64,000 nucleotides of DNA from Nannocystales bacterium (GTDB taxonomy: Bacteria; Myxococcota_A; Polyangia; Nannocystales; Nannocystaceae), in contig JBOEGF010000005.1 in the NCBI GenBank assembly GCA_050633305.1, positions 384,001 to 448,000 of the forward strand, given 5' to 3'. Of the stretch, positions 19,568 through 39,518 are shown one piece after another (positions within the stretch are counted from its first letter, which is position 1; the number at the start of each line of letters is the position of its first letter). The position numbers and the translations under genes were made by a program. Below the pieces are notes generated by a model that was not told where the DNA came from, made no database searches, and saw only the letters and a list, made by a program, of their open reading frames with translations.

Positions 19568-20548
19568 GTGGAACACGTGCAATGCCGACAGATCCGCCAC
19601 TCCTACGACGGCGTTCGAGACGCCATCGGGGGGCTCGACCTCGAGATCAAGCGCGGAGAGGTGCTTGCCCTGATCGGGCCCAACGGCGCTGGGAAGAGCA
19701 CCACGCTGCGGATCCTCGCGACGTTGCAACGGCCCGATGAGGGCACCGTGACCTGGGATGGTTCGGATGCCTGGACCGAGCGCTACGCACTGCGCCAGCG
19801 CATCGGCTTCTTGGGTGATGGCACCGCGCTGTACCCCAGCATGACCGCCGCGGGTTACCTGCGGTTCTTTGCCGAGTGTTACGGGCTCAGCGATTCAGAT
19901 GCCAAGAAGAGGGTGGCTGTCGTGCTCGACATGTTCGATCTCTCGACCAAAGCCGAGGCGACGATCAGCGCCCTGTCCAAGGGCATGCGGCAGCGATTGG
20001 CGATCGCCCGGACCATGATTCACGACCCCGAGCTGTTGCTGCTCGACGAGCCCGCCGATGGGCTCGATCCCCTTGCGCGTCGGCAGCTTCGAGACGTGTT
20101 GCGACGCGTGGCCGACCAAGGCGTTGGCATCGTCGTCAGCTCGCACATCCTTCGAGAGTTGGATCGCTTCGTCGACACCGTCGCCCTCATTCAAAAGGGG
20201 CGACTCGAGGTGCACGGCGGCGTCGAAGAGGTCATCGCCGACTACGATGTTGGTCGCCGGTTGCACCACGTCGAGGTGACGAACGGACTTGCGACCGCGC
20301 TCGAAGTGCTGCGAAAGCACGAGGGATTGATCGAAGGCGTCGAGCCGCTGCACAAGGACGAAGAGGCCGTGGATCCGAAGACCAGCCCGCGCGGGCGGAT
20401 CAAGGTACGGATCCACGGTGATGAGCGTCGAGCCGCAACGATCCTCAAGGACATGGTCCTGGCTGACGTCGAGGTGATCTCGATGGCCAAGGTCCGCAGC
20501 GACCTCGAGGACGTGTATCAGAGCATCGGGCGTGACGAAGTCAGCTGA
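19568..20548 (+). CDS. ABC transporter ATP-binding protein (ABC-2 type)
   Basis: GPNGAGKS, LSKGM, LLLLDEP, SSH; SD AGAAGGA. Confidence 0.93.
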   Translation: MEHVQCRQIRHSYDGVRDAIGGLDLEIKRGEVLALIGPNGAGKSTTLRILATLQRPDEGTVTWDGSDAWTERYALRQRIGFLGDGTALYPSMTAAGYLRFFAECYGLSDSDAKKRVAVVLDMFDLSTKAEATISALSKGMRQRLAIARTMIHDPELLLLDEPADGLDPLARRQLRDVLRRVADQGVGIVVSSHILRELDRFVDTVALIQKGRLEVHGGVEEVIADYDVGRRLHHVEVTNGLATALEVLRKHEGLIEGVEPLHKDEEAVDPKTSPRGRIKVRIHGDERRAATILKDMVLADVEVISMAKVRSDLEDVYQSIGRDEVS

Positions 20549-20650
20549 GCCACGGTCCTTCGTCCTCTCGTCTTGCGCGCCGACCGCGAGTCGGCTCGAA
20601 GAAATTGCCGCCGCACAGACATCTGCGGACCTGCGCGGTGTTGAGATGAT

Positions 20651-21871
20651 GTGACCAGCTCAATTGGCCCCCGTGCCGTCCTTGTCTCGATTTTCTTACT
20701 CTTAGGTCCCGCGTGCAGCTCCGACTCCTCGCAGGACGAGCCCGAGGGCGGTTCGTCGGGGGGGATTGGGAGCACCTCCGGCAATGAAACCTCCGGGAGC
20801 GGAGTCGGCAGTTCGTCGGGGTTACCGGGGACCTCCGGGAGCGACTCTTCGGGGACACCTGACGCCTCCTCCTCGGGAGGAGATTCGTCCGGAGAAGCCC
20901 CAGACCTCTCGCCCTACCAGCCCATTGTCGACAGTATCGATACCCCTGGCGCACAGGTCGCCGTGATCGAGCCGGACGGTGACGTTTGGTTCGGCGTCGG
21001 CGGTGACGCGGCGCAGGGCGAGCCCATGACGACGGACCACCGGCTCCTGATCGGGAGCAACACCAAGACATGGACCGCTGCGGTCACGTTGATGCTGGTG
21101 GACGAAGGGGAGCTTTCGCTCGATGACGCCGCGAGCACCTGGGTCGATACTCTCGACCCGGCGATCACGATCCGCGACCTGCTCCAGCACACCAGTGGTC
21201 TTGGCGAGTACTTCGAGCACCCCGACATGAAGGGGCACGGGGGCGACCCGTGGGCGCCCGCCGACCTCATCGCGCTTGGTCAGGGGGTCCGCGATGATGG
21301 TCCTGGAGCCTCCGTCTACTCGAACACCAACTACATCGCGCTGGGGTTGGTGCTGGAGGCGATCGAGGAGCAACCCTACGCCGAGGTCATTCAGACGCGA
21401 CTCTTCGAACCTCTCGAACTCGGCGATTCCGGTGTCGTCACTGACTCGTTCCCCGAGGACCTCGCACTTGGAGACGGCGGTGCGCTCGGCGTTGTGACGC
21501 CCGAGCATCCTTCGGTGGGGTGGGCGGCCGGGGCGGGCTATTCCACGGCGGAGGACCTCGCTGAGTTCTACCGAGCCATGCTTGCCGGGGAACTCTACAG
21601 CGACGCGTTGTTACAGCAGCAGCTCGACGACGTCCCCTCGGACCTTGGGTTTGGGCAACCGGGCGTGACGGAAGCTTATGGCCTTGGGCTGATGATGGTG
21701 GGCGTTGGCGGGCAAGAGCTCACCGGACACCTGGGCTCGCTGACCGGGTTCCATGGCTGGGGGCTGCGCGACGATGTGAGCGGTGGGCTCGTTGTCGTGC
21801 TGACGAACAACAGCGAGGTGACGTCGGTCGGTGCAGTCTTGGAGGCGCTCGCCGTTGCGGCCGAGGAGTGA
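20651..21871 (+). CDS. Serine hydrolase lipoprotein (beta-lactamase / D-Ala-D-Ala peptidase family)
   Basis: SxxK (GSNTK), LLQHTSG, YSN, GHLG; lipobox GPAC. Confidence 0.88.
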   Translation: MTSSIGPRAVLVSIFLLLGPACSSDSSQDEPEGGSSGGIGSTSGNETSGSGVGSSSGLPGTSGSDSSGTPDASSSGGDSSGEAPDLSPYQPIVDSIDTPGAQVAVIEPDGDVWFGVGGDAAQGEPMTTDHRLLIGSNTKTWTAAVTLMLVDEGELSLDDAASTWVDTLDPAITIRDLLQHTSGLGEYFEHPDMKGHGGDPWAPADLIALGQGVRDDGPGASVYSNTNYIALGLVLEAIEEQPYAEVIQTRLFEPLELGDSGVVTDSFPEDLALGDGGALGVVTPEHPSVGWAAGAGYSTAEDLAEFYRAMLAGELYSDALLQQQLDDVPSDLGFGQPGVTEAYGLGLMMVGVGGQELTGHLGSLTGFHGWGLRDDVSGGLVVVLTNNSEVTSVGAVLEALAVAAEE

Positions 21872-21892
21872 GAACGCGCCCCTGGGTTGCGG

Positions 21893-23287
21893 CTAGAGCT
21901 CGACCCAGCGGCGCATGCCCACCGCTTGCAGAAAACGCTCGTCGTGACTCACCACGACGAGTCCGCCGGCCCAGTTCCGCAGCACGGACTCCAGCGCCGC
22001 GAGGCCCTCGAAATCGAGATGGTCCGTGGGCTCATCGAGGACCAGAAGCTCAGGGATGCAGGTTTCGGCGAGCGCACAGATCAGCGCCGCGCGCAGTCGT
22101 TCGCCGGGGCTGAGGTTGCGCAGGGGGCGGTCGGCGAGGGCAAAGGGAAACCGATGCGCGCGGAGGACCGCTGCGACGTCTTCGAAGGGCTTTGCGTCGG
22201 CGAGTCGGTCGAGCACGCTCTCCTCCAGACACCAGTTGGCGGTGTTCTGCGAGATGTAGGCGATTCGGTGCCTTTCGCACTGGGCCCGGCCGGAACGAGG
22301 GGATAGCTCGCCCAAGAGCACGCGCAGCAGGGTGCTCTTGCCCGAACCATTGGGCCCAACGACGGCCACCCGGTCACGCCCAACCTCGAGGTCGATGCTC
22401 TCGAAGAGCGTCTCCTCCCCGTGGCGGACACAGACGTTCTCGAGGACCGCGAGGGGTCCCTGGGGCGGGGGAAGGTCTGGAAGTACGACGTCCAGAGGCA
22501 GATTCACAGTCAAGGCTCGGCGGGTCGCCTTCGCCCAAGCGCGTGCATCCCTCCGTCGAGCCCGCTGAATCCCGTCTCGCCGGCTTTGGCTCTCCTGCGC
22601 CGCAGACCTTTTCCCGTTCAGCAACGAGCGTGGGGTGCACCGCCCCAACTCACGCACCCGACCCAGGTTCTTTTTTCGGTCTCGGCTTTGTTGCGTACGG
22701 TGGTGGGTGCGTTCTTGGGCGACGAGGTTGTTGAGGGTCCGGACGTATCTTGTCTGCTCCGCATCGGCATGCAGCCGGAGGTCGTCTTGGAGCGCTTCGA
22801 ACGTGCCATGAACGTGACGACTGCCCGATTCTGCGACCACGAAGAAGTCTTCGAACGCAGAGAGGAGCCGTTGTTCGTGGGAGACGACGAGCAGCGCGCC
22901 TTCCCATCGTTGCAGCCGTCGCACCAGCCACGCGATCCCGTCGGAGTCGAGATCGTGACTCGGTTCGTCGAACAGCAAGAGGTCGGGAGCGGCCGCGAAG
23001 GCGGCTTCGAGTCGGCGTCGTTGGACCTGTCCCGGGCTGTGCAGCGGGGAGGAAACGGTGGCTTGTTGGGAGACCACGCCCCGGGTGCCCGTACGGTGAA
23101 CAACCCCGGCCGTCGGGGACGCCTCGCCTGCCAGGACCCGGAGCAAGGATGACTTCCCGACCCCGTTGCGGCCCACGAGCGCGACTTGGTCTCCCTGGCC
23201 GAGCTGCAGACTGAGCTCGCGCAGGAGAGGGCGCCCGCCCGGTGTGTCCAGACAAAGGCCTCGGGCGGAGAGCAAGGGAGCTGTCAT
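21893..23287 (-). CDS. ABC-F family ribosome-associated ATPase
   Basis: Two NBDs (GRNGVGKS..DEPSHDLD; GPNGSGKS..LSPGE..DEPTDHLD..VSHD), long basic linker, no TM; ATGA overlap with hflX. Confidence 0.85.
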   Translation of the reverse strand: MTAPLLSARGLCLDTPGGRPLLRELSLQLGQGDQVALVGRNGVGKSSLLRVLAGEASPTAGVVHRTGTRGVVSQQATVSSPLHSPGQVQRRRLEAAFAAAPDLLLFDEPSHDLDSDGIAWLVRRLQRWEGALLVVSHEQRLLSAFEDFFVVAESGSRHVHGTFEALQDDLRLHADAEQTRYVRTLNNLVAQERTHHRTQQSRDRKKNLGRVRELGRCTPRSLLNGKRSAAQESQSRRDGIQRARRRDARAWAKATRRALTVNLPLDVVLPDLPPPQGPLAVLENVCVRHGEETLFESIDLEVGRDRVAVVGPNGSGKSTLLRVLLGELSPRSGRAQCERHRIAYISQNTANWCLEESVLDRLADAKPFEDVAAVLRAHRFPFALADRPLRNLSPGERLRAALICALAETCIPELLVLDEPTDHLDFEGLAALESVLRNWAGGLVVVSHDERFLQAVGMRRWVEL

Positions 23288-24654
23288 CGTTGCCTCCGTC
23301 GGGTCACGCGCGCGATCTTCTCCACGACGTGCGCCGGACCTTGAATGAGGAATTGGGTACCCGTGGGCGCTGCCGCAGACTTCAAGACACGGCAGCGTGC
23401 GTAGATGGCCTCGGTGACCTCCGAGCGTGTGTACGGAACGAACACCTCCCGCGTGGCGTGGTTGGCCCTGGATGCTTCGAGGAGTCGGGCGCGGAGACGC
23501 TCGATGTCTGTTGGGTTGTGCGTGCTGATCGCCTCGAACGGAGCGTCTTCGGCGAGCTGGCGGAGGTGCTCGATCTGCAGTCCGTCGCACATCTCGACCT
23601 TGTTGAACACGATGAACCGCGGCGTGTTCGCGGCGCCAAGCCGTCCCAAGACCTCCCGCGTTGACTCGAGGTGTCGCGCCACCTCTGGGTCCGAGGCATC
23701 GAGGACCACGACCAGCACAGATGCCTCGGCTGCTTCGGCCAGCGTTGTTTCGAAGCTGGCGTAGAGCCTCTCGGGGAGGTCTCGGATGAATCCGACCGTG
23801 TCGCTGATCAGGATGTCCCCGCCGTGCCGGCTCAGCGCGCGTGAGGTCGTGTCGAGCGTTTCGAACGGACGGTCACGGACCGAGAGGTCGGCGGAGGTGA
23901 GGGCGTTCATCAACGATGTCTTGCCCGCGTTCGTGTAACCAACGAGCACCAGGCGAGCGCAGTCGGACCGGCGCGTGCGTTGTGCCCGGTCTGCAACCTT
24001 GAGTTTGGCCAACCGACGTTGGAGTTCGGAGAGCCGAGAATCGAGCCGCCGGGCGAACAGCTCCGATGCCGTCTCGCCCGCGCCCTTGCTTCCCATGATG
24101 CCGCCCGCTTGCTGGTCCATGTTGAGCCCGATGCCGCGAATCCGAGGTCGCAGGTACTGGAGGTGGGCGATCTCGACCTGAATGCGGGCGCGTGGGGTTG
24201 TGGCGTGTTGCTCGAAGACGTTGAGGATTACCGCCTCTCGGTCGCAGATCGGCAACCCCACGAGGTCCTCGAGGTTTCGAGTCTGTGACGGGGTGAGCTC
24301 AGCATCGACCACCAACATGTCGGCGCCGCACTCCTCCGCAGTTGCAGCGACACGGCTTGCGACCCCGCGTCCCACGAACGTCCGCGGGTCGGCCTCGGCC
24401 AAACGCTGACTCTCACTGCCAACGATGCGGTCTCCCTGGGCCTGGACGAGCCCTGTGATCTCGGCGAGTTGTGCCTGAGGAACGCTTCGATGACGACGGA
24501 CGACCGACAACACGTAGCAGGCGTTGCCGTCCTCGTGAGCGGTACGAGGACGCCGTTGTTTGGCGTCCCAGTGGGTGGTCAGGTCCTCGAGTTGCCCCTC
24601 ATCTGCGAGCGGCACCTCGATGTGTTCGTCGATCGGTTTCGAATGGAATTTCAT
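23284..24654 (-). CDS. hflX: GTPase HflX, divergent paralog
   Basis: LTPSQTRNLE, DREAVILNVF, GAGET, GYTNAGKTS, FETLD, DTVGFI, NKVE. Confidence 0.92.
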   Translation of the reverse strand: MKFHSKPIDEHIEVPLADEGQLEDLTTHWDAKQRRPRTAHEDGNACYVLSVVRRHRSVPQAQLAEITGLVQAQGDRIVGSESQRLAEADPRTFVGRGVASRVAATAEECGADMLVVDAELTPSQTRNLEDLVGLPICDREAVILNVFEQHATTPRARIQVEIAHLQYLRPRIRGIGLNMDQQAGGIMGSKGAGETASELFARRLDSRLSELQRRLAKLKVADRAQRTRRSDCARLVLVGYTNAGKTSLMNALTSADLSVRDRPFETLDTTSRALSRHGGDILISDTVGFIRDLPERLYASFETTLAEAAEASVLVVVLDASDPEVARHLESTREVLGRLGAANTPRFIVFNKVEMCDGLQIEHLRQLAEDAPFEAISTHNPTDIERLRARLLEASRANHATREVFVPYTRSEVTEAIYARCRVLKSAAAPTGTQFLIQGPAHVVEKIARVTRRRQR

Positions 24655-24847
24655 GCGGTAGGCCCTTTCGGGCCGCTCTACGCGACATGCGTCGCGGGCG
24701 GCCTGGAGCGCGCAACCGGGGTTGTGAGCGCTCAGGTTCGTCGTGAGTTGGTGGCCACGGCGTGCGTCAAACAGCGCGGGTTCTGCAGAGAACCCGGACA
24801 CCGGACCGTTGTCCTCGAGGCGGGCAGTGCCGCCGAGGGACCAACAT

Positions 24848-24871
24848 TCAAACGAAGTTGAAGAACCGCAT
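24848..24871 (-). CDS. Putative leader peptide MRFFNFV upstream of hflX
   Basis: ATG CGG TTC TTC AAC TTC GTT TGA, 9 nt after a sigma-70-like promoter and followed by several hairpins. Confidence 0.5.
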   Translation of the reverse strand: MRFFNFV

Positions 24872-24880
24872 GATGGGGAA

Positions 24881-24909
24881 GGCGTAGCGCCGTTGTCGGG
24901 GAGGCGCAA
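24881..24909 (-). promoter_or_regulatory. Sigma-70-like promoter TTGCGC-N17-TACGCC
   Basis: Exact 17-nt spacing; imperfect -10 element. Confidence 0.45.
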
Positions 24910-24937
24910 GGACGAACTTGAAAAAGCGCGGCTCGTC

Positions 24938-25459
24938 TCAGAATCCAAGCCGCGGTGTCGCGCTCGCGTAACGCTTCCATCGTTCGCCGAAGCGCTCCGC
25001 CAGCGCGCGCTCTTCGAGTTGCAGTCGAGCGACCAAAAGCGGGAGCTGGGCGGCGGCGAGAAATCCCGAGAACAAACTTGGGGCTGCGACGAACAACCCG
25101 AGCGTCCAACACAGGAGGCCGAGTTCGGACGGGTGCCGCATCACGCCATGGATGCCGGTCGTCACGAGGTGCTCGGCGTTCGCTTCGGTGCGGAACAGGG
25201 AGCCAAGGTTGCGCATGGCGGCGGCGCGGAGCCAGCCCCCGCCAACCAAGAGCCCCGCGGCGATGAGGGCTTGGGGGACTCCGGCGGCCCGAACCGACGC
25301 GTAGATCGAGGCCCCAAGTAGGAGCACGCTTGCCGTCAGCGCGATGACTCGCAAGGCTTGGTCATTGCGGTGGGTGCCCTCGGCGCGGGCCGGAGGTGAG
25401 ACCAGCGCCTCTTGCAGGATCGCGGCACCGATCCCGCACAGGACGAGCAGCGAACTCAC
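24938..25459 (-). CDS. Isoprenylcysteine carboxyl methyltransferase (ICMT/PEMT)-family membrane protein
   Basis: HLVTTGIHGVMRHP, EERALAERFG, TM helices. Confidence 0.8.
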   Translation of the reverse strand: MSSLLVLCGIGAAILQEALVSPPARAEGTHRNDQALRVIALTASVLLLGASIYASVRAAGVPQALIAAGLLVGGGWLRAAAMRNLGSLFRTEANAEHLVTTGIHGVMRHPSELGLLCWTLGLFVAAPSLFSGFLAAAQLPLLVARLQLEERALAERFGERWKRYASATPRLGF

Positions 25460-26067
25460 TGGCCGGCGACGTGGGCCGCGACCGCCTGCTCGATCACATC
25501 GGCAGGCATGCCCATAGCTGCACCCGCGCGGTGCAGGACCTGGTGGTCCTGAGGCTGGACCTGCCGAGTGGGAGCGAGCGTGGAGAGCATCAAACGCAGC
25601 AGCAGAGTCTTGCCGTCGGCGGAGAAGTCTTGGGTTTGGGCTTGAAAGGTCGGCTCAAGTTGGGCCTGGGCCTGCTGCGCGAACTGGACATCCTGGTGAA
25701 TGACTTCTTCGGCGACGAAGTCTTGGGTCACCTCTTGAAGCGCCGTGCGGAGCGCGTTCACGTTCTCCGGCTGGTAGCGGTTCGCGAACAACATGGCCAG
25801 CACCGACAGTCGCCGGAGCCTGTCGAACATCTCGGCGCGCTCGGCCGCAGGGTCATGGTGGAGCGCTTCCATGTCGAAGGTTCCGGCGCACGCATTGCAT
25901 TCGAGGTACTCGCCCGCCGTTCCCAAGGGGATGACCGGGATGAAGTACAGCGTGAACCATCGCTTCTGCTTCTTGTGCGAGTAGGGCTTCTGGGGACCGC
26001 AGCGCGGGCAGTTGAACACCCCCTGTCCTGCTGTGGGGTTGGTCGTACGAGTGCCGAAGATGATCAT
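25456..26067 (-). CDS. Zinc-ribbon protein with TerB-like helical C-terminus
   Basis: MIIFG, CPRC, WFTLYFIPVIPL, CNAC. Confidence 0.8.
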   Translation of the reverse strand: MIIFGTRTTNPTAGQGVFNCPRCGPQKPYSHKKQKRWFTLYFIPVIPLGTAGEYLECNACAGTFDMEALHHDPAAERAEMFDRLRRLSVLAMLFANRYQPENVNALRTALQEVTQDFVAEEVIHQDVQFAQQAQAQLEPTFQAQTQDFSADGKTLLLRLMLSTLAPTRQVQPQDHQVLHRAGAAMGMPADVIEQAVAAHVAGQ

Positions 26068-26112
26068 GACCGGCCCGAACTGTACCGCACCCCGGTGTGC
26101 GAGACTGGGTGC

Positions 26113-26682
26113 ATGGCTGCGCAGGACGCCACTCGGTGGGACGCGAAGTATCGAGGGCGAGCCCTGCCGACGCCGGGCCCAAGTGCGGCGTTGGAGTCGG
26201 TCGCCTCGTGGATCCCCGGCCAAGGTCGGCTCCTCGATCTGGCGGGGGGCGACGGCGCACAGGCCGTATGGCTTGCGGCACGAGGATTGGAGGTCACGCT
26301 CTGTGACGTCTCCGGCGTTGCACTGGAACGGGCAAAACGTGTTGCCGCAGCATCCGGGCAGAGCCTCACGACGCTGCAGATCGATCTCGAGATCGTGCCG
26401 CTCCCTGAAGGGCCGTGGTCGGCCGTGGTGTGTTCGAACTATCTACAACTGTCGTTGTGGCCTGCGGTGGCGAGCGCGTTGCGCCCTGGCGGAAGAGCGA
26501 TCTGGCTGCACCCCACCATCGAAAACCTGACGCGGCACGAGAAACCGAGTCGTCGATTTCTCCTCGAGCCCGGACAGGGCGAGCGCGTCATCGCCGACGC
26601 TGGCCTCGGGGTCGAGTTTACCGAGGAATCGTGGGTCGCCGGCCGCCACCTGTCCTGCGTGGTTGGATCGCGGGGTGCATGA
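26113..26682 (+). CDS. Class I SAM-dependent methyltransferase (TehB-like)
   Basis: WDAKY, LDLAGGDG, DVS, LRPGG. Confidence 0.85.
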   Translation: MAAQDATRWDAKYRGRALPTPGPSAALESVASWIPGQGRLLDLAGGDGAQAVWLAARGLEVTLCDVSGVALERAKRVAAASGQSLTTLQIDLEIVPLPEGPWSAVVCSNYLQLSLWPAVASALRPGGRAIWLHPTIENLTRHEKPSRRFLLEPGQGERVIADAGLGVEFTEESWVAGRHLSCVVGSRGA

Positions 26683-26701
26683 GCGGGGGGTTACTGCGCT
26701 G

Positions 26702-27613
26702 TCAGCCGAACTGAACCGCGCTGACATGGGCGTGCATGAGCTGCGTTTGTAGCGGGATCTTGGCCTGATCTTCTTGTGCCGCGCCCGCGGCCACCATGAG
26801 CGGGAGCAGGTGCTCCGCGCGTGGATGGCATGCTCGGGCGGCGGGGGCTTGTTGCCACTGGGCCAAGCGTCGGGCTCGCTCGGACGGCGAGGCGAGAGTC
26901 GTCTCGACCATCCAATCGTCAAACGCCTTCGAGTCGTTGGCGACTTGGCGTTGTCCAGAGGCACTACCGCGCGCGGCACCGAATCCTCGCATGTTGTGGT
27001 AGCTCATTCCGCTGCCCACGATCAGGATCCCCTGCTTGCGCAGAGGGGCGAGCGCGCGGCCCATCGCGAAATGCTGCTGCGGATCCAACGACGCCAGCAG
27101 GGAGACCTGGAAGGTCGGGATGGAGGCGTTGGGGAAGGGCACCATCAGTGGGACGAATGCACCATGGTCGAAGCCGCGACGTTTGTCGGCTGCGGTCTTG
27201 AAACCTGCCGCGCCGAGATGCTCCTGGACCAGGGCTGCGGCTTCCGGGTCTCCCGGTGCGTTCCACTGGTACTCGTACGCCTCGGCTGGAAAACCGCCGT
27301 AGTCGTAGAGCATCGGGGGGCGGGGCGCGGATTGCACGGTGGGGACGCCCTCCTCCCAGTGGGCTGAGATGCACAGGATCGCCCGGGGGGGCCGCGGGAG
27401 TCCATCGGCCATGGTTGCGAGGTAGTTGCGAAGCGGCGCGTAAGCGTCGCGCATGCCCATGTCGACGATGGTCCACGGACCACCACCGTGCGGGACGAAG
27501 AGCGTTGGCAGGACGATGTCGGTCATGGCTCGTTGCTGCTCCTTGGGGCGTGCACAGCCTCCGAGTGCGAGGCTCGCGGCTCCGGTCAGGAAGCTTCGGC
27601 GCTTGTGATGCAC
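26702..27613 (-). CDS. DODA/YgiD-type extradiol ring-cleavage dioxygenase (LigB family), possibly a Tat lipoprotein
   Basis: PHGGGP, SAHW, YDYGGFP, RGFDHG, GSGMSYHN, HPRAEHLLP; N-terminal KRRSFL and LGGC. Confidence 0.88.
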   Translation of the reverse strand: MHHKRRSFLTGAASLALGGCARPKEQQRAMTDIVLPTLFVPHGGGPWTIVDMGMRDAYAPLRNYLATMADGLPRPPRAILCISAHWEEGVPTVQSAPRPPMLYDYGGFPAEAYEYQWNAPGDPEAAALVQEHLGAAGFKTAADKRRGFDHGAFVPLMVPFPNASIPTFQVSLLASLDPQQHFAMGRALAPLRKQGILIVGSGMSYHNMRGFGAARGSASGQRQVANDSKAFDDWMVETTLASPSERARRLAQWQQAPAARACHPRAEHLLPLMVAAGAAQEDQAKIPLQTQLMHAHVSAVQFG

Positions 27614-27736
27614 GGCCGTAGCGTAGCTCCGTGAGGGGACCGATGGGGTGGAACGGTCCTTTGCCCGTCGCGAAACCGAGTCATCGCTGCGTCGGCAAAG
27701 TGGGCGGCCCGCTGCCGCAGGCCGCCCGGTGTTGTC

Positions 27737-28900
27737 TCAGCGAATACCGGTCACAAGACCGGCACCCACCGTCTTCCCGCCCTCACGCATGGCAAAACGC
27801 ATGCCGACCTCGACCGCCACAGGGTGTTGCAGCTCGAAGTTCACCGTCGCGCGGTCACCGGGGCGGATGAGGTCCCCTCCGGTCTCGAGTGCGGCCGACA
27901 CATCGGTTGCGCCGAAGAACAGCTGCGGCGTGTACCCGCTCCCGAAGGGAGTGTGGCGTCCGCCCTCATCCTTGCGGAGGATGAAGACCTCGGCGGTGCC
28001 CCGCTGGTGGGGCGCAATGCTGCCCGGCAAGGCGAGCACCGATCCCCGGGCGATCTGGTCCCGCTTCACACCCCGGAGCAGGAGACCGACGTTGAGTCCG
28101 GCACTGGCTTCGGGGATGTCGCGATGGAAAGCCTGGATGCCTGTCACCACCACTTCACCGCCCTGCTCGCCCACGATGTCGACGGACGCGCCACGAGGGA
28201 GGACCCCACGCGAGACACGACCCGTGACCACGGTTCCACGCCCTTCGATCGTGTGCACGTTCTCCACGGGCATGAGGAATGCGCCCGTGAGGTCCCGCGC
28301 GGGTTCCTCGACGTCGTTGTCGAGCGCGCGGACGAGCGCTTGCACGGCCAGCACGGACGGGTCATCCCATCGCTGTTCGGTTGCAGCCTGCATGGCTTGC
28401 AACGCCGAGCCGCGGACGATGGTCGCGTTCTCGAACCCGTTGGCATCGAGCAACTCGGTGGTTTCCAGCTCGACCAGCTCGAGCAACTCCTCGTTGCTCA
28501 GGTCGACTTTGTTCACGAACACCACGAGTTGTTTCACGCCCACTTGTCGTGCCAACAGGACGTGTTCACGGGTCTGGGGCTCGGGGCCCTGCGACCCGTC
28601 GACGAGCAAGATTGCGCCGTCCATCTGGGACGCACCCGTGATCATGTTCTTCACGTAGTCGGCGTGGCCGGGGCAGTCGATGTGGGCGTAGTGCCGGATG
28701 CGCGAGTCGTACTGGACGTGTGCGGTGTTGATCGTGATGCCGCGCTCTCGCTCTTCGGGTGCGTTGTCGATCTGCTCGAACGCCTTTGCGGTGCCGCCAA
28801 AGTCGTGCGCGCACACCAGACTCAATGCCGCGGTGAGGGTCGTCTTGCCGTGATCGACGTGGCCGATCGTGCCGATGTTGACGTGGGTTTTGGTGACCAT
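27737..28900 (-). CDS. tuf: Elongation factor Tu, divergent orphan paralog
   Basis: [59 protein letters not shown]; not in an rpsL/fusA or tRNA-secE context. Confidence 0.95.
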
Positions 28901-29040
28901 CTTCTCGTTCCTTGGAGCAGTGCTCCCTCGAAGTCCCATGGGTTGAACGCCCCCAGGTGCGTTGGGACGGGCCGAACCTGGGCGCAGGCCTGCGGGGTCG
29001 CGGGCGGTCTCGGTGGTGCGCGCGCTCGGTTCGAGCACGC

Positions 29041-29072
29041 AAAAAAGCCCCGTGCGCTGCTGCGTACGGGGC
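29041..29072 (-). terminator. Intrinsic terminator (attenuator) in the tuf 5' leader
   Basis: GCCCCGTACGC-AGCA-GCGCACGGGGC followed by TTTTTT, 140 nt upstream of the tuf ATG and downstream of the promoter. Confidence 0.85.
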
Positions 29073-29092
29073 CCTGGTGGCGAACCGGGATG

Positions 29093-29218
29093 TTAATCCG
29101 CGGCGTTCCCAGAAGAGGAGGTCCGTGCACAGCGAGCGCGCCTACGTTCCGATGTCCCCGGATCCGTAAGGACCAGGGCCAGTCGTAGGGCGCCATCGGC
29201 TGTGCAGGTGCGGACCAT
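29093..29218 (-). CDS. Putative attenuator leader peptide (41 aa, MVRTCTADGALRLALV...)
   Basis: ATG 11 nt after the -10 element; TAA about 20 nt before the terminator; overlaps the alternative pairing segments. Confidence 0.5.
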   Translation of the reverse strand: MVRTCTADGALRLALVLTDPGTSERRRARCARTSSSGNAAD

Positions 29219-29229
29219 TGTTGGTCGCC

Positions 29230-29257
29230 AACATGGCACCGAACAGGAGAACGTCAA
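29230..29257 (-). promoter_or_regulatory. Sigma-70-like promoter TTGACG-N16-CATGTT (TGn extended -10)
   Basis: Near-consensus -35; positioned directly ahead of the leader. Confidence 0.6.
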
Positions 29258-29351
29258 GGGGTTTTGGCTCTGCATCCGCGGATGGACGAACGCCCCGGCA
29301 GGTCCGATTCGGAGACGGAGGTCTTGCTTGGAGGCGTGCACCTGCGGCGTG

Positions 29352-32333
29352 TCAGGGCCGCGGGTGTTGCTCACGCCAGCGCGCGACGTCCCGCCGAATC
29401 TTGTCGGCCCACGGCTCTTGTACGCCAACGGTGAGCGCCTCCGCCTCTTCGACAGCCTCGGTCGCGAGCGGAAAATCGGCGGGGTCGGCGACGAGTCGAG
29501 CCGCGACGAAGACCAGGTTCTCGGCGAAGAGCTGAGGGCTGGGGTGGTCGGCACGCAGGGCCTCCAGGGTCTGGAGCAGGGACCGTCGTGCGTCGTCGTG
29601 TCGCTCGAGCCCACGGAAGGCGTCGGCCTGTTCGAGCCGCAGCAGCGCCGGGACGAGCCCGGCGGTCAGCGACAGTGTCTGGGCGCCTCGGAGTCCCCGC
29701 GTGCTGTGGGAGAGCGCGGAGTCCCACTGTTGTGCGGCGTTGGCCATTTGGGCGGCCACGATCCGAGTTCGGACGATCGGCATCGAGCCCTCGGGGTTGA
29801 GGCGGGCTGCCACCTCGACGAGCTCTGTGGTGTGCACCCATGCTGCATGGGCTCCACGTGCGTCGAGTAGGCAGTAGGTCCGGTTTTGCAGCGACTCCAC
29901 GTGGAACTCGCCGTGCAGCCGGTCTGCGGTCTCGAACGCGGCGTCGGCACGCTCGAAGGTGTCGATTGCGTCGTCGCACCGCTTTGCGATGCCCAACACG
30001 GACCCGCGGGTCGAGAGGGTGCGGGCGAGCTCGAGCGGGTCCTGCTCGTCGAGTTTGCGGAACAACGTGACCGCTCGATCGATGCTGGCCAGCGCCTCGT
30101 CGGCTCGTTCGAGGTCACCGAGCACCATCCCCTGGTCGCGCAGGGCCCGGAGCAACGCATAGGACTCCCCTTGTGTCTCCTGCGCGATGGAAACCCGACG
30201 GGTGTGACGCCTGGCGGCGCCCTCGAGGTCCCCGTGCTGGGCGTCGAGGTTGGCCATGAAGCCAAGTGGAAACAGCAGACGCGAATCGGTAGGACCGTGG
30301 CGCGTCTGTAGGGCCTCGATGACCTGCTCACCCTCTCGCCGGGCTTCGTCGCCGCGTCCCATCAATGACAGAATTCGGGCGCGCTCGATTCTCTGTGTCC
30401 AGGCGGCGACGTCGTCGCCCTCGGACATTTCGACCTTCACTGCCAGCGCTTCTTCGATGAGTGTGAGCGCGGTGGTGAGTTCTCCCCGGCCGACGGCGAG
30501 CTGGGCTCCAACTTCCGCCAGGTAGCGTTGGGAGTTCGGGTCGGGGCGTCGCTCGAGCGCGCCCTGAGCGATCCTCAGAAGGCGCGCCCCCTCGGCCGCG
30601 GTGCTCTGGTGAGCGCCGACGAGCAGCGCAAGCCCACCTGCTCCCCGGGGAACGTACCGGTGGTACCCGCTGGCCAACGACCGGCTCAAGACTCGCTCGT
30701 AGTCCGCCTTCGCGCGTTCTCGGAGCCCGTCCGTGGCGGCAAGGTCTGCCCGCAGGAGCCGTACCTCGATCTCGGCGGGCTCGTAGCCGGTGGCTTTGGC
30801 AAGGTCGAGCAGTGCGTCGACGCGTCGCTCGAGCCGTTGCCTCGACCCTGTCGCGAGCAGCGTTCGAAGCTCGGCGACATCGGAGCGGAGTTCGGCGACG
30901 GTGGCCCGTGTCGCGGCGTCGGCCGGAGGCGCGACGTCCCCGCGCAGGAGCTCGGTGTCTTCGCAGTCGGAGACGCGCGGCAGTTTGCCCAAGACTTGGT
31001 CGACCCGAGACACGATATTCCGAGTCGGAACACGAACGGTTCGCAGGATGCCGGTGGCGGTGGCGAGTTGCTCGTCGAGACAGGTCGCGCGCAGGTCGTA
31101 CATGGCTTCGGACTGACTCTGCTCGACTCGCGCGGCGAGACACGCGTCGGTGCGGCTCGCTGCCCAGGCATTGGCGAACGCGTCCAATCTCGCCGCGATC
31201 AGGGTCCCAGCGGAAGTCGCATGGGGGATGTCGGCTTGTCCGTACGCCTGCTCGACGTGGTCGCGTTCCTCGTCGTTCCACAATGCCGACATCCCTTCAG
31301 CTGCGGCGATGCACGGCTTGTCTCCCAGTGCCCATTGAGCCGAGACGACGGCGCCCGCTGTGAGGCTGACAAGCGCCGCTGCGGCGCCGACCCTTCGTCG
31401 AGCCGTGGCAGGGTCTCGCTCGAGCGCGTCGAGCAAGGCGTCCATGCTCGGGTACCGCGCCTCGGGTGTTCCGGCCAGGCCTTGGCAGAGGATCGGCCAT
31501 ACTCTGGTAGGCGCTCGGCCGGGCGGCGGCGTCCGAATGCGGCCCGCCATAATCTCTGCGAGAGGGTCCTCGGCTGCGGCGTCAGCCCGGAATGGCGCCT
31601 GAGCATGGAGGGCCACGTACAGGCTCACGCAGAAGGCGAACTGGTCGGCGGCGGCCGTGAGGGGCTCGCCCCGACATTGCTCGGGCGGCATGTACATCGG
31701 GGTACCGACCGGGCTGAGCGTGGTGGTCACGCTGGTCAGTGGGTTGGGGGACGCCTCAGAATCTGAGGCCGAGGCCGAGGTCTCCTCGTTGACGACGCGG
31801 TGTGCGAGACCGAAGTCTGCAACGCGAGGCCGCCCTTCGGCGTCCAACAACACGTTATCGGGCTTGAAGTCGCGGTGCACCAAGTCGATCGCATGGGCAG
31901 CTGCGAGCCCGCGGCCCGCCGCGACGAACATGTCGAGGACCTGGGCAGGACTCCGGTGCTGCGCGGTCAGCCACCCGCGTAGCGAGCCCCCGGGCGCGAA
32001 CTCCATCGCGATGAAAACCTCCCCCTCGTATGTCCCGACCTCGAACACAGTCAAGACGTTGGGGTGGGACAGTCGTGCCATTGCCCTCGCCTCTCGCTGC
32101 AACCGCGCGGTGCCGCCGGCGAAGTCGCGGTGCAGCTTGATCGCCACCGTTCGTTCCAGGCGAGGGTCCCAAGCGCGATACACCACGCCCATTCCTCCCG
32201 CACCGATCTTCCGTTCGATCACGAAGTGCCCAACCTGGTCGCCTTCGTTGACGAGCAGCGGTGTCACATTGATCGCAGGGGCGGCTGCGAGCTCGCGTAG
32301 AGCAGACCCCAGCGAACTGAGGTCCGAGTGCAT
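29352..32333 (-). CDS. Ser/Thr protein kinase with TM segment and TPR-like extracellular region
   Basis: GAGGMG, VAIK, HRDFKPDN, DFG, GTPMYMPPE, ADQFAFC; helical repeats; alternative start at GTG 32366. Confidence 0.92.
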   Translation of the reverse strand: MHSDLSSLGSALRELAAAPAINVTPLLVNEGDQVGHFVIERKIGAGGMGVVYRAWDPRLERTVAIKLHRDFAGGTARLQREARAMARLSHPNVLTVFEVGTYEGEVFIAMEFAPGGSLRGWLTAQHRSPAQVLDMFVAAGRGLAAAHAIDLVHRDFKPDNVLLDAEGRPRVADFGLAHRVVNEETSASASDSEASPNPLTSVTTTLSPVGTPMYMPPEQCRGEPLTAAADQFAFCVSLYVALHAQAPFRADAAAEDPLAEIMAGRIRTPPPGRAPTRVWPILCQGLAGTPEARYPSMDALLDALERDPATARRRVGAAAALVSLTAGAVVSAQWALGDKPCIAAAEGMSALWNDEERDHVEQAYGQADIPHATSAGTLIAARLDAFANAWAASRTDACLAARVEQSQSEAMYDLRATCLDEQLATATGILRTVRVPTRNIVSRVDQVLGKLPRVSDCEDTELLRGDVAPPADAATRATVAELRSDVAELRTLLATGSRQRLERRVDALLDLAKATGYEPAEIEVRLLRADLAATDGLRERAKADYERVLSRSLASGYHRYVPRGAGGLALLVGAHQSTAAEGARLLRIAQGALERRPDPNSQRYLAEVGAQLAVGRGELTTALTLIEEALAVKVEMSEGDDVAAWTQRIERARILSLMGRGDEARREGEQVIEALQTRHGPTDSRLLFPLGFMANLDAQHGDLEGAARRHTRRVSIAQETQGESYALLRALRDQGMVLGDLERADEALASIDRAVTLFRKLDEQDPLELARTLSTRGSVLGIAKRCDDAIDTFERADAAFETADRLHGEFHVESLQNRTYCLLDARGAHAAWVHTTELVEVAARLNPEGSMPIVRTRIVAAQMANAAQQWDSALSHSTRGLRGAQTLSLTAGLVPALLRLEQADAFRGLERHDDARRSLLQTLEALRADHPSPQLFAENLVFVAARLVADPADFPLATEAVEEAEALTVGVQEPWADKIRRDVARWREQHPRP

Positions 32334-32458
32334 CGGCACGGAGTCGTCACGCCTTGCCACCGACACCCACTATACCGCCCTCCGTTGCGACTCACGGAAG
32401 ACTTCCCGTGGGTGCCGACAGCCGACGGCCGGACCGTTCGAGGAGTCCCTCGGGGCTG

Positions 32459-33199
32459 CTAGAGGCGCTCCACTACGCACGAGGTGAGCGTCCAGTTCTC
32501 TTTGCTTGTCGACCGAAGTGCGATGCCGAACGCTGGGTTCTCGACCTCCGCGGAAGGCACGGTGATCATGAACCTCAACGTGTCGGCCACAAACGAGAAG
32601 CTCGCCGCGCTGGTTGTGAAGAATCCCCCGGGGTAGGTCACGCCGCCCCGAACGGACATCGTCTCGGTGAATTCCCCGGAGCACTCGACCAGGAGGTCGT
32701 GGCCCACGAGCTCGGGGCGCAGTGGCATCATGATGCTGACCCCGCCGTCGCCCTCGACGTTGATCTGCGCTTCTCTCCAGCTGGCGACGCCGGCTTGCCA
32801 CTGCACCTTGTAGCCGAAGAAAAAGAAGCCTCGGCTGGACGGTCTCGTTGGTGTCAGCTTGGACGGTCGCGAGAGCCGCAGAGGGGCGACGTCGAACATC
32901 TTCTTCTCGATCGTCCCGGCCGCAGGGTTCGAGGTCGTCCGCATCGAGCCGAACTGGGCGTCGAAGTTGTTGTCGAACGTCGCCTCCTTCGGCGCCAACC
33001 CCATCCGCACCACCCCCTTGCGCACCGTGACCGCCGGTCCTTTTGCGGTGGCCTTCTTGATCGCTGCCGTCCCTTTGCTGGGGCGCCGCTTCCGGTGTTT
33101 GGTGGGCGCTGCCTTCTTCGTGGCAGGGGCGCTGTGGGCGGAGCCCGTGAGCAGAAGAGCAAGAGAGCAGATGGACAAGACAGCGGGGGTGCGGCGCAT
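32459..33199 (-). CDS. Hypothetical secreted protein
   Basis: Signal peptide, Lys/Ala-rich linker, beta-rich domain; SD GAAGGA. Confidence 0.7.
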   Translation of the reverse strand: MRRTPAVLSICSLALLLTGSAHSAPATKKAAPTKHRKRRPSKGTAAIKKATAKGPAVTVRKGVVRMGLAPKEATFDNNFDAQFGSMRTTSNPAAGTIEKKMFDVAPLRLSRPSKLTPTRPSSRGFFFFGYKVQWQAGVASWREAQINVEGDGGVSIMMPLRPELVGHDLLVECSGEFTETMSVRGGVTYPGGFFTTSAASFSFVADTLRFMITVPSAEVENPAFGIALRSTSKENWTLTSCVVERL

Positions 33200-33432
33200 C
33201 AGAGGTGTTCCTTCGGATCGGTAGGTGCGCGGCGAAGGGTTTGTGACACGCTGAGTTTCCCCGGACCCGGCGGCGCGGCGCTCGGCAGGCCGGTCGCGGC
33301 CGTGAGCCCCGGCTCCGGATGCCTGACCGGGGTGTCGGTTTGAGCTTGAGGCGGTTTTCCGGCCGAGCGCTGCTTGCGCTTTTCCGGACACGGGGCCCGG
33401 AGGGTTCGCGCTCCGTGGTATCCACCCAACGC

Positions 33433-34341
33433 ATGCGCTTCTTGGCCGTTGTTAATCCTGCAGCTGGTGGTGGCCGCTGTGGCAAGGAGTACCCCGCGGC
33501 GATCCGGCGGCTCGAGGATGCCGGCCTGGAGGTCGATGTGGTGACGACGTCCGGGCCTGGCGAGGCGGTGGAGTTGGTACGGAAAGCCTGGGCGGACGGG
33601 CAGCGGCGTTTCCTTGCGGTGGGCGGAGATGGAACCGGCTACGAGCTGGTCAACGGCATGTTCCCACTGGCACTCGAAGGTGAAGAGGAGCCGCCTCAGC
33701 TGGGGTTCCTTCCGCTGGGAACGGGCAACTCATTCCTCCGGGACTTCATGAAGCCCGGCGACAAGGACGGAGCGGGGCACGCCCTCGGTGCGCTCCTCGA
33801 ACAACGGCTTCGGTCGATCGATGTGGTTCGCATCGAGCACGACAAGGGCGAAAACTTCTACATCAACCTGTTCGCGATCGGCTTCGCCGCGGACGTCAAC
33901 TCTCGTGCGGCTCGGTACAAGAACTGGGGCGAGTTTGGGTACATCGGCAGCGTGGTCGCGGAGACCCTGGGTCTGGCGCCGAACACCTACCCCCTGCGTG
34001 AGGACGGCGGTGCGCTGAACCAGGACCCCGCGGCGTTCATCGCGATCTGCAACAGCAAGTTCACCGGAGGCACGATGATGATGGCGCCCAACGCCGACAC
34101 TGGGGACGGCAAGGTCGACGTCGTGCACGTGGGCGCCTTGGGCCGGATCGGTCTGTTGCGCGCGTTCCCCAAGTTGTTCGAGGGAAAACACCTCGACCTC
34201 GACGTTGTGCGGGGCAGTCAGCCCAGTCGTGTGGAGTTCGAACTCGACGGTCCGACGAACATCATGCTCGATGGGGAAGCGCTGTACGTGCAGCCCAAGG
34301 TGATCGAGGTGCTGCCGGGCGCGCTTCAGGTCTTCGCCTGA
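33433..34341 (+). CDS. Diacylglycerol kinase family lipid kinase (YegS/DagK-like)
   Basis: NPAAG, GGDGT, PLGTGN, DGE. Confidence 0.92.
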   Translation: MRFLAVVNPAAGGGRCGKEYPAAIRRLEDAGLEVDVVTTSGPGEAVELVRKAWADGQRRFLAVGGDGTGYELVNGMFPLALEGEEEPPQLGFLPLGTGNSFLRDFMKPGDKDGAGHALGALLEQRLRSIDVVRIEHDKGENFYINLFAIGFAADVNSRAARYKNWGEFGYIGSVVAETLGLAPNTYPLREDGGALNQDPAAFIAICNSKFTGGTMMMAPNADTGDGKVDVVHVGALGRIGLLRAFPKLFEGKHLDLDVVRGSQPSRVEFELDGPTNIMLDGEALYVQPKVIEVLPGALQVFA

Positions 34342-34342
34342 C

Positions 34343-34373
34343 AGCCGGCCCGAACGAGACGCTCGGGCCGGCT
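34343..34373. terminator. Hairpin between convergent genes
   Basis: Perfect 11-bp stem agccggcccga / tcgggccggct. Confidence 0.55.
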
Positions 34374-34381
34374 CGGCGCAC

Positions 34382-36652
<2,271 letters not shown>

Positions 36653-36671
36653 GGCGCGGAGGGTATCGCGT

Positions 36672-37886
36672 TCAGAAGCGGCCTTCGACGGTGAGTCCAC
36701 CAAGTCCCGGTCCGCCCAGAGGCGCGACGGAGAGCCTCTCAGCGCGACGTTCAAGGGTGTGCGAACGGTTGCGCGCCCCAGCGGCCAAGCCGATGAGCGC
36801 GGCTGCGCCGACCGCCAGTCCAACCCCTGCGAACGTTGCTGCACGGCGGCTGGACCTGTATCTGTCGATGTCTGCGTCGAGTTCGGCGACCCGTTCGGAT
36901 GCCCGTCGCTGCTCCGCGTCGCTCGCAAAGAACGGGTCATGCTCATCCGCGGTTTGTGCCTCGAGGTCCCGGTCGAACTCGGCCATGCCGATCTGAATCG
37001 AGCGAACCCCTGCGAAGAGCCCCGCACCGAGTGCACCCGCCACGGTCAAGCCCGTCCCAATCCGGGCCCCCCGCCGGACACCGCTCCACCGTTCTGCAGC
37101 CGTTCGGAGCGCCTCGGCTTCGGTTGCGTTTTGTGCATGCTCAGCGGAGAGCAACGAGCCGCCCACACCGAGCGGAGCGAGCTCGACGCGTAGGAGCGCG
37201 CCGCATTGCGCGGGGGGTCGTGCTTCGACGAGGTTTGTGTCCCCGCAGCGTGCAAGGTCTCCGTCTCTGCGTAGGGTCTCGGTCGACCGAGCCAGGCTCA
37301 CGCCACCGCCCGCGCCGTGGACCGATGCTCCAACGTCTCCGTCGATGGCGCTGCCCGTGTACAGCGAGAAGGCGCCCACGGTCATCGCGGTCACGAGATG
37401 CGTGGCCCCGCTGCACGCCGCGGCGTTTCCGATTGCACGTGCTTGGTCGACGCCCGCTTCGCGTTGTCCGACGACGATCATGTCGACGTTGAGTTGGCCC
37501 TCCCGAGACAGCGCGGACTCGAGACGCGCCGCGCCGAGCGGGAGCTTCGCCCACAGGGCATCTCGGTCTCGGATCCGTAGCTCGTCTCGCTTGTGCGTGA
37601 GCGGGTGATAGGCGTACTCGCCCTCGAGTTCGCACCGCGAGAGCACCTGCATCTGGCAACCGTCGTACCGGACTGCTACGAGGCCTTGGCCAGCCGCAGC
37701 CTCCAGTTGGGCCCTGTCTGCCGCGGGCCACTCGACCAGCAGCGGTTGGGTCTCGTCGGGTGTTGTAGGGCACGCGGTTGGGCTTGCCAGCGCAGATGAA
37801 GCCGTGGGGACCGACGACCCTGGTGTGTTTGCCTGGCAACCCGACAGGAGAAGCAGGCTCGTGGCCACGAGGGAAAGCATCCGCAC
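36672..37886 (-). CDS. Hypothetical lipoprotein with C-terminal hydrophobic segments
   Basis: LSGC lipobox; Cys-containing domain [21 protein letters not shown]. Confidence 0.7.
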
Positions 37887-37965
37887 GTCAACAACTGACG
37901 CGTCACTCCCACGATCGATACAACCGCATCGGACGCGGATGTGCGGGCGCTGGGACTCGCCCCGC

Positions 37966-39468: not shown

Positions 39469-39518
39469 TCTGCCCAGTGTGCGCCGTGCCCCGCCCGCAG
39501 GGAAGGCACAAAGTGGTG

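Follow-up and report, generated by a model that had tools for sequence, protein, structure and literature searches.

A candidate leader-peptide transcription attenuator in front of the gene of a divergent EF-Tu paralogue in Nannocystaceae

Control of transcription by translation of a short leader peptide is the textbook mode of attenuation in the amino-acid operons of the enterobacteria (trpL, hisL, thrL, leuL, pheL), and is known for some resistance genes. The leaders of tet(M), of ABC-F genes and of hflXr in Listeria are ribosome-mediated attenuators too, and the products of tet(M) and hflXr are translational GTPases. Here we describe a putative attenuator of this type in a stretch of 64,000 nucleotides (nt) of a Nannocystales bacterium (Myxococcota_A, Nannocystaceae; GenBank assembly GCA_050633305.1, contig JBOEGF010000005.1, positions 384,001 to 448,000 of the forward strand; hereafter the window), in which a leader with an upstream open reading frame (uORF) precedes the gene of a divergent paralogue of elongation factor EF-Tu (tuf). 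All leader coordinates are window positions on the minus strand, and G000 denotes the genome of the window. We put the probability at roughly 60% that the unit is a leader-peptide, and thus ribosome-dependent, transcription attenuator, in which readthrough into the paralogue is predicted when the ribosome on the uORF lags within about the first 20 codons.

The unit shares with the trp-type attenuators a promoter-proximal short open reading frame with its early codons over segment 1 of the leader, 1:2, 2:3 and 3:4 helices that exclude one another, an intrinsic terminator ahead of the gene, and a default termination, here inferred, both without translation and with fast translation. Unlike in those systems, the G000 leader has no regulatory codon run, the uORF, at 38-47 codons, is longer and extends over the entire 1:2 hairpin (P1), the start is near-leaderless and lacks a Shine-Dalgarno sequence, the cargo is a translation factor paralogue instead of a biosynthetic operon, and the host is a myxobacterium. 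With the tet(M), ABC-F and hflXr leaders it has in common the combination of a uORF with a terminator and an antiterminator, predicted here to sense impaired translation and to induce a factor that acts on the ribosome; the cargo differs, being EF-Tu, an inducing drug is known only for the described systems, and there is no sequence relation. Ribosome-mediated attenuation of hflXr in Listeria has been reported (PMC6310831).

Spare EF-Tu genes have been encountered in the Actinomycetota. The Streptomyces factor EF-Tu3, also 'actEF-Tu2', is said to have been studied by van Wezel in 1995, and is reportedly resistant to three classes of EF-Tu inhibitors, to go by the title of a 2007 study by Olsthoorn-Tieleman. 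The Myxococcota paralogue is likewise a divergent extra EF-Tu, predicted here to be induced by stress; EF-Tu3 is reportedly inessential and stress-induced. In Streptomyces coelicolor, tuf3 (encoding EF-Tu3) and hflX belong to the genes that are activated by WblC/WhiB7 and induced by translation inhibitors (PMC7157823), the whiB7 leader carries a regulatory uORF (PMC10274678), and actEFTu2 of Streptomyces was called 'starvation-induced' (PMC4342817). The two systems agree in that a uORF senses translation stress (here a prediction) and that the output includes a spare divergent EF-Tu, and the hflX gene located 2.8 kb from the unit in G000 recalls the WblC regulon. They differ in that the actinobacterial uORF controls a transcription factor that activates tuf3, whereas here the switch would be wired directly to the EF-Tu gene, and in the phylum. 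Neither direct control of an EF-Tu gene by a uORF switch nor the Myxococcota paralogue was found in the full-text literature searched, which was mostly non-subscription. As far as this search reaches, the proposed wiring of a uORF attenuator directly to an EF-Tu gene is new, the attenuator logic itself being known. A sequence-only reading of the same DNA knew of no description of the switch; this stands for the wiring, but not for a stress-induced spare EF-Tu, of which tuf3 is an example (PMC7157823).

The whole unit is located in the 451-nt gap between the gene of a 1004-residue Ser/Thr kinase (32366-29352) and the EF-Tu gene (28900-27737). Its elements are the following.

29252..29257, minus strand: -35 hexamer TTGACG, read in the sequence and identical in five of five leader homologues
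29230..29238, minus strand: extended -10 element TG-c-CATGTT (TG at 29238-29237, CATGTT at 29235-29230); TGyCATGTT in five of five homologues
29093..29218, minus strand: uORF (leader peptide) of 41 sense codons plus TAA (ATG at 29218, TAA at 29095-29093)
29199..29216, minus strand: segment 1, the 5' strand of hairpin P1, uORF codons 1-7, paired with segment 2 in the minimum free energy (MFE) structure
29120..29140, minus strand: segment 2, the 3' strand of P1 (29139-29120 in the pairing with segment 1) and alternative antiterminator strand; best upstream partner of segment 3
29054..29073, minus strand: segment 3, terminator 5' arm and loop, from the duplex computation
29041..29073, minus strand: predicted intrinsic terminator, a GC hairpin at 29073-29047 (-21.7 kcal/mol) followed by U6 at 29046-29041
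28901..29040, minus strand: distal leader with conserved hairpins (from the alignment), one of which, GGAGC/GCUCC, directly precedes the start region AAGGA...GAGAAG-ATG
27737..28900, minus strand: gene of the divergent EF-Tu paralogue, 387 residues (EF-Tu subfamily models and alignment)

The -35 and -10 elements are separated by a spacer of 16 nt and together presumably form a working promoter, with a -10 hexamer, CATGTT, that has only three of six consensus matches. The ATG of the uORF follows this hexamer at 11 nt, near-leaderless and without a Shine-Dalgarno sequence, and its stop codon is found 19 nt ahead of the terminator stem. The terminator thus stands between the uORF and tuf, with 140 nt from the U tract to the tuf ATG (28900). 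The sequence-only reading had placed all of these elements (promoter, uORF, segments, hairpin, U6 and the 140-nt distance) correctly on the minus strand, and its remark that the uORF start shows no run of a single amino acid is borne out in G000. Promoter and terminator were both missed by a simple consensus scan (at least 9 of 12 promoter matches; terminator loop of 3-8 nt), whose rules admit no -10 hexamer with three of six matches, no interrupted stem and no loop outside 3-8 nt. In the distal leader (28901-29040; fold z = -1.83) no sigma-70-like promoter was found by the consensus scan, whose strictness makes it unsuited to testing for a second promoter, or in the alignment by eye. The possibility that the hairpin is the terminator of the upstream kinase gene was considered and rejected: it lies 280 nt past the kinase stop codon and behind the promoter, and the homologues have other genes upstream.

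The strongest evidence for the proposed attenuator design is its recurrence in unrelated lineages, as seen in the leader sequences. Leaders of the same paralogue without detectable sequence likeness to that of G000 show the same 1:2 / 2:3 / 3:4 topology in four lineages, for which the predicted antiterminator and terminator compare as follows; the partner given for the antiterminator strand is the one it has in the MFE structure.

L012 (another genus): antiterminator -25.9 and terminator -16.1 kcal/mol; p = 0.043; antiterminator strand pairs with nt 8-26, the first uORF codons
L013 (another family): antiterminator -28.5 and terminator -20.7 kcal/mol; 0 of 300 shuffles; antiterminator strand pairs inside the uORF
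L082: antiterminator -19.3 and terminator -20.0 kcal/mol; 0 of 200 shuffles; antiterminator strand pairs with nt 18-28
L081: antiterminator -17.3 and terminator -14.5 kcal/mol; p = 0.05; antiterminator strand pairs with nt 17-29

Over the six lineages tested (G000 standing for its family, and L078, discussed below, included) the Fisher-combined p is 3.7e-5, and 0.011 without the two strongest. The uORF stop codon is located 19-34 nt ahead of the terminator stem in all these lineages, and segment 1 always overlaps the first uORF codons, in the G000 family as in the unrelated leaders. The 1:2 / 2:3 / 3:4 architecture proposed from the sequence alone therefore holds and is much strengthened, both by the homologues and by the four unrelated leaders; the putative attenuator architecture is well supported by this comparative evidence.

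Homologues of the leader at the DNA level are few. They were found in two of the 71 other genomes of the family (G003 and G005) and on three metagenome contigs (L048, L050 and L049, the last of which is cut), so that most counts given here refer to five homologues, and to six sequences where the partial L049 is included. The same search in the G000 genome returned only the leader itself. The remaining matches in the family, six of 23-30 nt with E-values of 3e-4 to 7e-3, were taken as chance, as were two of the four matches of a 20-mer scan of genome contigs, which fell in Acidobacteriota contigs. Common to all homologues are the -35 hexamer, TG-CATGTT, the ATG, P1 with its two strands, and the hairpin including the loop. 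Over its 5' arm, loop and 3' arm the terminator hairpin is invariant except for two positions in all six sequences, with variable flanks, and the U6 tract is kept in four of them (G000, L048, L049 and L050). The unit is preceded by different genes in G000, in G003 and on the metagenome contigs, from which it follows that the leader goes with tuf, not with the kinase gene, and that the unit travels with its gene. In the distal leader, hairpins common to the six homologues lie directly past the U tract and before the start region, and compensatory changes occur in a GCCCGCG/CGCGGGC hairpin.

The 196-nt leader of G000 folds with an MFE of -100.3 kcal/mol (z = -6.20), a value reached by none of 200 shuffles. 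In this structure segments 1 and 2 pair at the base of the long hairpin P1 and the terminator hairpin stands alone. Over five sequences the terminator hairpin is 100% paired in each, and helices 1 and 2 of P1 are 96.7% and 78.1% paired. The competing duplex of segment 2 with the terminator 5' arm and loop, previously estimated at about 15 base pairs, comprises 17 pairs in G000 and has an energy of -26.2 kcal/mol, the terminator one of -21.7. In all five homologues no upstream stretch pairs better with segment 3 than segment 2 does (-24.4 to -26.9 kcal/mol, with terminator hairpins of -21.7 to -27.5 kcal/mol), and the 2:3 pairing gains weight because it recurs in these five and in the four unrelated leaders, as the combined p indicates. 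The 2:3 helix is 94.9% paired over five sequences and has no double-sided changes, since it is almost invariant. A C/A mismatch in the G000 antiterminator is replaced in G003, a member of the other of two sub-lineages, by a G-U pair through changes on both strands.

The effect of translation on these folds was modelled by masking a ribosome footprint at a given P-site codon (in a variant, the whole 5' side), either at equilibrium for the full transcript or for transcripts that end before the terminator 3' arm, the moment that matters kinetically. In the equilibrium folds of G000 the antiterminator takes the place of the terminator when the P site is at codons 5-7; masking of the whole 5' side shifts this to codons 5-8, 11 and 22 in G000, and in L012 the antiterminator then wins at codons 3-19. 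In the truncated transcripts without a ribosome, 2-6 of the 20 bases of segment 3 pair upstream in four of the five homologues, and 14 in G005. With a footprint at P-site codons 1 to about 16, at least 10 and mostly at least 15 of these 20 bases pair upstream in all five. If the whole 5' side is masked, upstream pairing extends to about codon 22 and is lost once the ribosome covers segment 2. The rule that a stall in the first codons frees segment 2, put forward by the sequence-only reading, is thus consistent with the modelled nascent transcripts in all five homologues, but at equilibrium only in G000 and L012.

Following the logic of trp-type attenuators, we propose that without a ribosome, or with a ribosome that keeps pace up to the stop codon, P1 would hold segment 2 and the terminator would form, giving a default transcript of about 180 nt with its 3' end in the U tract. 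If instead a ribosome is slow or stalls, be it on segment 1 or within P1, segment 2 would be left free as segment 3 emerges; the antiterminator would then form before the terminator, and the EF-Tu paralogue gene would be transcribed. This direction of switching, together with its signal, is plausible on the basis of the analysis. Most likely the signal would be a general drop in elongation speed relative to transcription, as caused by translation inhibitors, shortage of ternary complex or starvation. Since a codon run is absent from the G000 uORF and different genera have unrelated peptides, the speed of the ribosome relative to that of RNA polymerase is the simplest signal, in line with the sequence-only reading, which had named general elongation failure such as EF-Tu inhibition, and the many rare uORF codons would tune the sensing of elongation speed. 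Because P1 holds segment 2 in the absence of a ribosome, initiation itself would be a precondition for readthrough.

That the uORF is translated is suggested, indirectly, by several comparisons. The ATG at 29218 is the only start that is kept in all five sequences; an ATG at 29234, inside the -10 hexamer, is not conserved and one at 29196 is missing in L048 and L050. The length varies over the homologues (38-47 codons) by net changes of +3 nt (from ATG to segment 2, G003 group versus G000 group), +18 (L048) and -6 (L050), all of which keep the frame, whereas indels past the uORF stop codon are mostly of 1-2 nt. Among 44 orthologous loci with at least 300 nt upstream, TTGAC[AG] with a -10-like hexamer 16-18 nt downstream is found in 32, against 1.34 expected in shuffles. 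A closed ATG reading frame of at least 12 codons that starts within 110 nt, counted as a uORF, is present in 31 of these 32 promoter-bearing loci as compared to about 32% in shuffles; promoter plus closed uORF thus occur in 31 of the 44 loci, where shuffles give 0.43. The distance from the -10 hexamer to the ATG is 9-13 nt in many lineages, and in others a Shine-Dalgarno sequence precedes the ATG. The uORFs differ in composition from their other two frames (Pro 2.7% versus 9.3%, His 0.8% versus 3.7%, Thr 7.6% versus 4.8%). The G000 uORF is not codon-optimised, 15 of its 40 codons ending in A or T versus 19.6% in six window genes, and it includes CTA, AGG, CTT, GCT, two TCT and two ACA; a cluster or run of codons for one amino acid is absent. 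The peptides are conserved within genera, and no motif, including any stalling motif, is common to different genera. A Cys-rich precursor of a peptide made on the ribosome and modified after translation (RiPP), encoded beside a resistant EF-Tu, was considered as the identity of the uORF and rejected, there being no maturation genes nearby and the peptides being unrelated between genera.

The regulated gene encodes a protein that, judged from its sequence, is a real but rebuilt EF-Tu, changed in the aminoacyl pocket and in the junction of the three domains. The GTPase motifs are intact (P-loop, DCPGH, NKxD and SAL). The protein passes the subfamily models NF000766 (534.1/449), NF009372 (526.4/479) and NF009373 (523.7/452), stays below the equivalog cut-off of TIGR00485 (514.9 versus 522.4 bits), and shares 50-58% identity with the canonical tuf copies in relatives, which agrees with its earlier description as an alternative EF-Tu. 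It belongs to a separate clade of single-copy orthologues that are 62-84% identical to it and occur in 38 of the 72 genomes of the family (E ≤ 1e-142) and in 19 of 401 genomes sampled across the phylum; the leader-tuf unit is old and widespread. Alignment of 34 paralogues with 16 canonical copies, numbered by alignment to PDB 7bbn_A, gave the following replacements at positions where all 16 canonical copies share one residue (at D/E272 it is D).

R333: G in 34 of 34 paralogues
T334: A or V in 31 of 34
D216: lost in 33 of 34
F218: C or H in 33 of 34
E259: Q in 33 of 34
M112: Q or E in 34 of 34
D/E272: L in 26 of 34

Residues 215-228 and 273 are taken here to line the aminoacyl pocket, in domain 2, that is also occupied by GE2270A, and positions 230, 333 and 334 presumably are those of pulvomycin resistance in E. 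coli; neither assignment was confirmed in the literature searched. The product of readthrough would then likely be a spare EF-Tu with a remodelled aminoacyl, or thiopeptide-pulvomycin, pocket.

A number of results weigh against the proposed attenuator. Taken singly the 2:3 duplex is not rare, being matched in 12.7% of 300 dinucleotide shuffles of the upstream RNA of G000, and the tests per sequence within the G000 family (300 shuffles each) give p-values of 0.06-0.16. Covariation is weak, the sequences being too few and too similar: the check recommended by the earlier reading did yield five pairs changed on both sides in P1 plus terminator (81.6% paired), but none in the antiterminator, and 21-22 of 500 shuffles reach the observed values. 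At equilibrium the antiterminator never wins in L048, L050, G003, G005 or L013. The hairpins of G003 and G005 are kept, with a longer stem, but without a U tract. Changed uORF codons are mostly non-synonymous (10 of 16, 12 of 18 and 6 of 8), which implies that conservation concerns the reading frame, the sequence of the peptide being held only loosely. Among the unrelated leaders, L078 has a candidate terminator only (p = 0.19) and no significant antiterminator, and in three of six further loci examined (L083, L080 and L084) a terminator was not found. A hairpin with a U-rich tail within 500 nt upstream of the paralogue occurs in 14 of 36 orthologous loci and is clear as a terminator in six of those 14 (four G000-type sequences, L012 and L013). 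Since the terminator search is mostly empty, most other genera must use the uORF by other means than a canonical intrinsic terminator. Finally, the RNA runs X7 and X13 match only 28850-28897, the 5' end of tuf that is conserved in other organisms, so that the leader transcript is not covered.

Some of these results would be expected if the terminator were a constitutive leaky one, or an insulator, or if the polarity were opposite, with efficient leaderless initiation opening P1 and so giving readthrough. The equilibrium folds, which favour the terminator at every ribosome position in four of the five homologues, the loss of the U tract in G003 and G005, and the hold of P1 on segment 2 without a ribosome all fit such a scheme. 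The conservation of both 2:3 strands and of the loop, and the recurrence of the three-way topology in unrelated leaders, are nevertheless hard to explain without conditional use, and we regard it as the least probable of the explanations considered. The strong and conserved fold, the invariant terminator loop, the conserved hairpins in the 140 nt past the terminator and the poorly conserved peptide would also suit a structured RNA switch, either a riboswitch or a protein site (e.g. autogenous control by EF-Tu or by a different translation protein), that chooses between 2:3 and 3:4 while the uORF is no sensor at all. Against this, the Rfam 15 covariance models, a check suggested before, gave no match at E ≤ 1 (window positions 20000-40000, both strands), uORF indels keep the frame, segment 1 lies over the first uORF codons throughout, and the leaders are unrelated between genera, yet nearly every promoter-bearing locus has a uORF; such a switch is very improbable.

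The remaining alternatives retain the uORF as the sensor. A drug-specific switch of the erm, cat or ABC-F type, in which stalling by the nascent peptide would induce a drug-insensitive EF-Tu, could account for the clade-wide changes of the cargo at canonical-invariant residues (R333G, T334A/V, E259Q, loss of D216, F218 to C/H) and for the conservation of the peptides within genera. A peptide motif common to the genera is absent, however, most codon changes within the G000 family are non-synonymous, and no biosynthetic cluster or other resistance gene was seen beside the unit; we consider this quite unlikely. The same attenuator might also respond to a specific signal, shortage of charged tRNA for threonine (perhaps serine), read at early rare codons such as ACA. 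Over 21 leaders the first ten uORF residues are 12.9% threonine, as compared to 4.8% for the other two frames; of the 47 Thr codons in the uORFs 15 are ACA, against 13% in six G000 genes, and short Thr/Ser clusters are found in some leaders (L016, L012 and L083). Codon 6 is ACA in all five homologues, and in G000 the equilibrium antiterminator wins exactly at P-site codons 5-7. The invariant ACA can nevertheless be explained by RNA pairing alone, because it lies in the P1/antiterminator helix. In addition, the first ten residues in G000 include only two Thr, without a run, Thr is absent from this part in several leaders (L013, L064 and L067, by eye), the 21 leaders are not mutually independent, and there is no obvious reason that ties threonine supply to the EF-Tu paralogue. 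We consider the threonine signal unlikely, although the mild enrichment of Thr among the first ten residues leaves room for an amino-acid-specific signal.

Returning to the attenuator governed by general elongation speed, its most far-reaching form is an ancient self-contained translation speedometer, in which a leaderless peptide races RNA polymerase and lagging ribosomes switch on a rebuilt EF-Tu (R333G, loss of D216 and F218, E259Q) that is insensitive to natural inhibitors acting against ternary-complex formation or specialised for certain aminoacyl-tRNAs. We offer this only tentatively, and consider it rather doubtful as a whole. If true, it would mean that the cell swaps one elongation factor for another as need arises. 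Should the switch behave as predicted, it would provide a simple read-out of translation-stress sensing in large-genome predators, and the remodelled pocket of the paralogue may show how EF-Tu escapes inhibitors or shifts its substrate preference.

The surroundings of the gene vary. In G000 the hflX gene (23284-24948, minus strand; TIGR03156, 314.9 bits) is located downstream of the paralogue on the same strand. Synteny near tuf is limited to an adjoining dioxygenase-like gene, and to within the genus. The canonical tuf copies of G000 are broken at contig ends (C90, C52 and C53), as expected for collapsed duplicate tuf genes, and for that reason only parts of the housekeeping EF-Tu of this genome can be compared. 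In seven of 34 loci scanned the uORF leader and the paralogue are separated by a tRNA-Tyr(GTA) gene (L014, L018, L058, L062, L064, L070 and L075), and by its position the leader would in those seven genomes control tRNA-Tyr along with the EF-Tu paralogue. L074 has two tRNA-Pro genes on the opposite strand.

Among the sequencing runs, the microbial-mat DNA run X1 was the only one with half of the sampled words. Its contig (depth about 2; errors or a near strain are possible) differs from the window at five places within 29074-29096, between the uORF end and the terminator, one of which alters the last uORF codon synonymously, from GAT to GAC. Some other leaders have features of their own. In one genus group (L056, L063, L068, L071, L057 and L067) AGGAG followed by an ATG-TGA start-stop mini-ORF precedes the tuf ATG by 12 nt, and the 25-codon uORF is near-identical in five of the six, L067 differing in about one third of the residues. 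In L017, L020 and L021 a 5-bp hairpin with a GAAAGA loop, with compensatory changes among the three, immediately precedes the Shine-Dalgarno sequence, at about 25-45 nt upstream of the tuf ATG, and L020 carries tandem repeats of about 95 nt further upstream.

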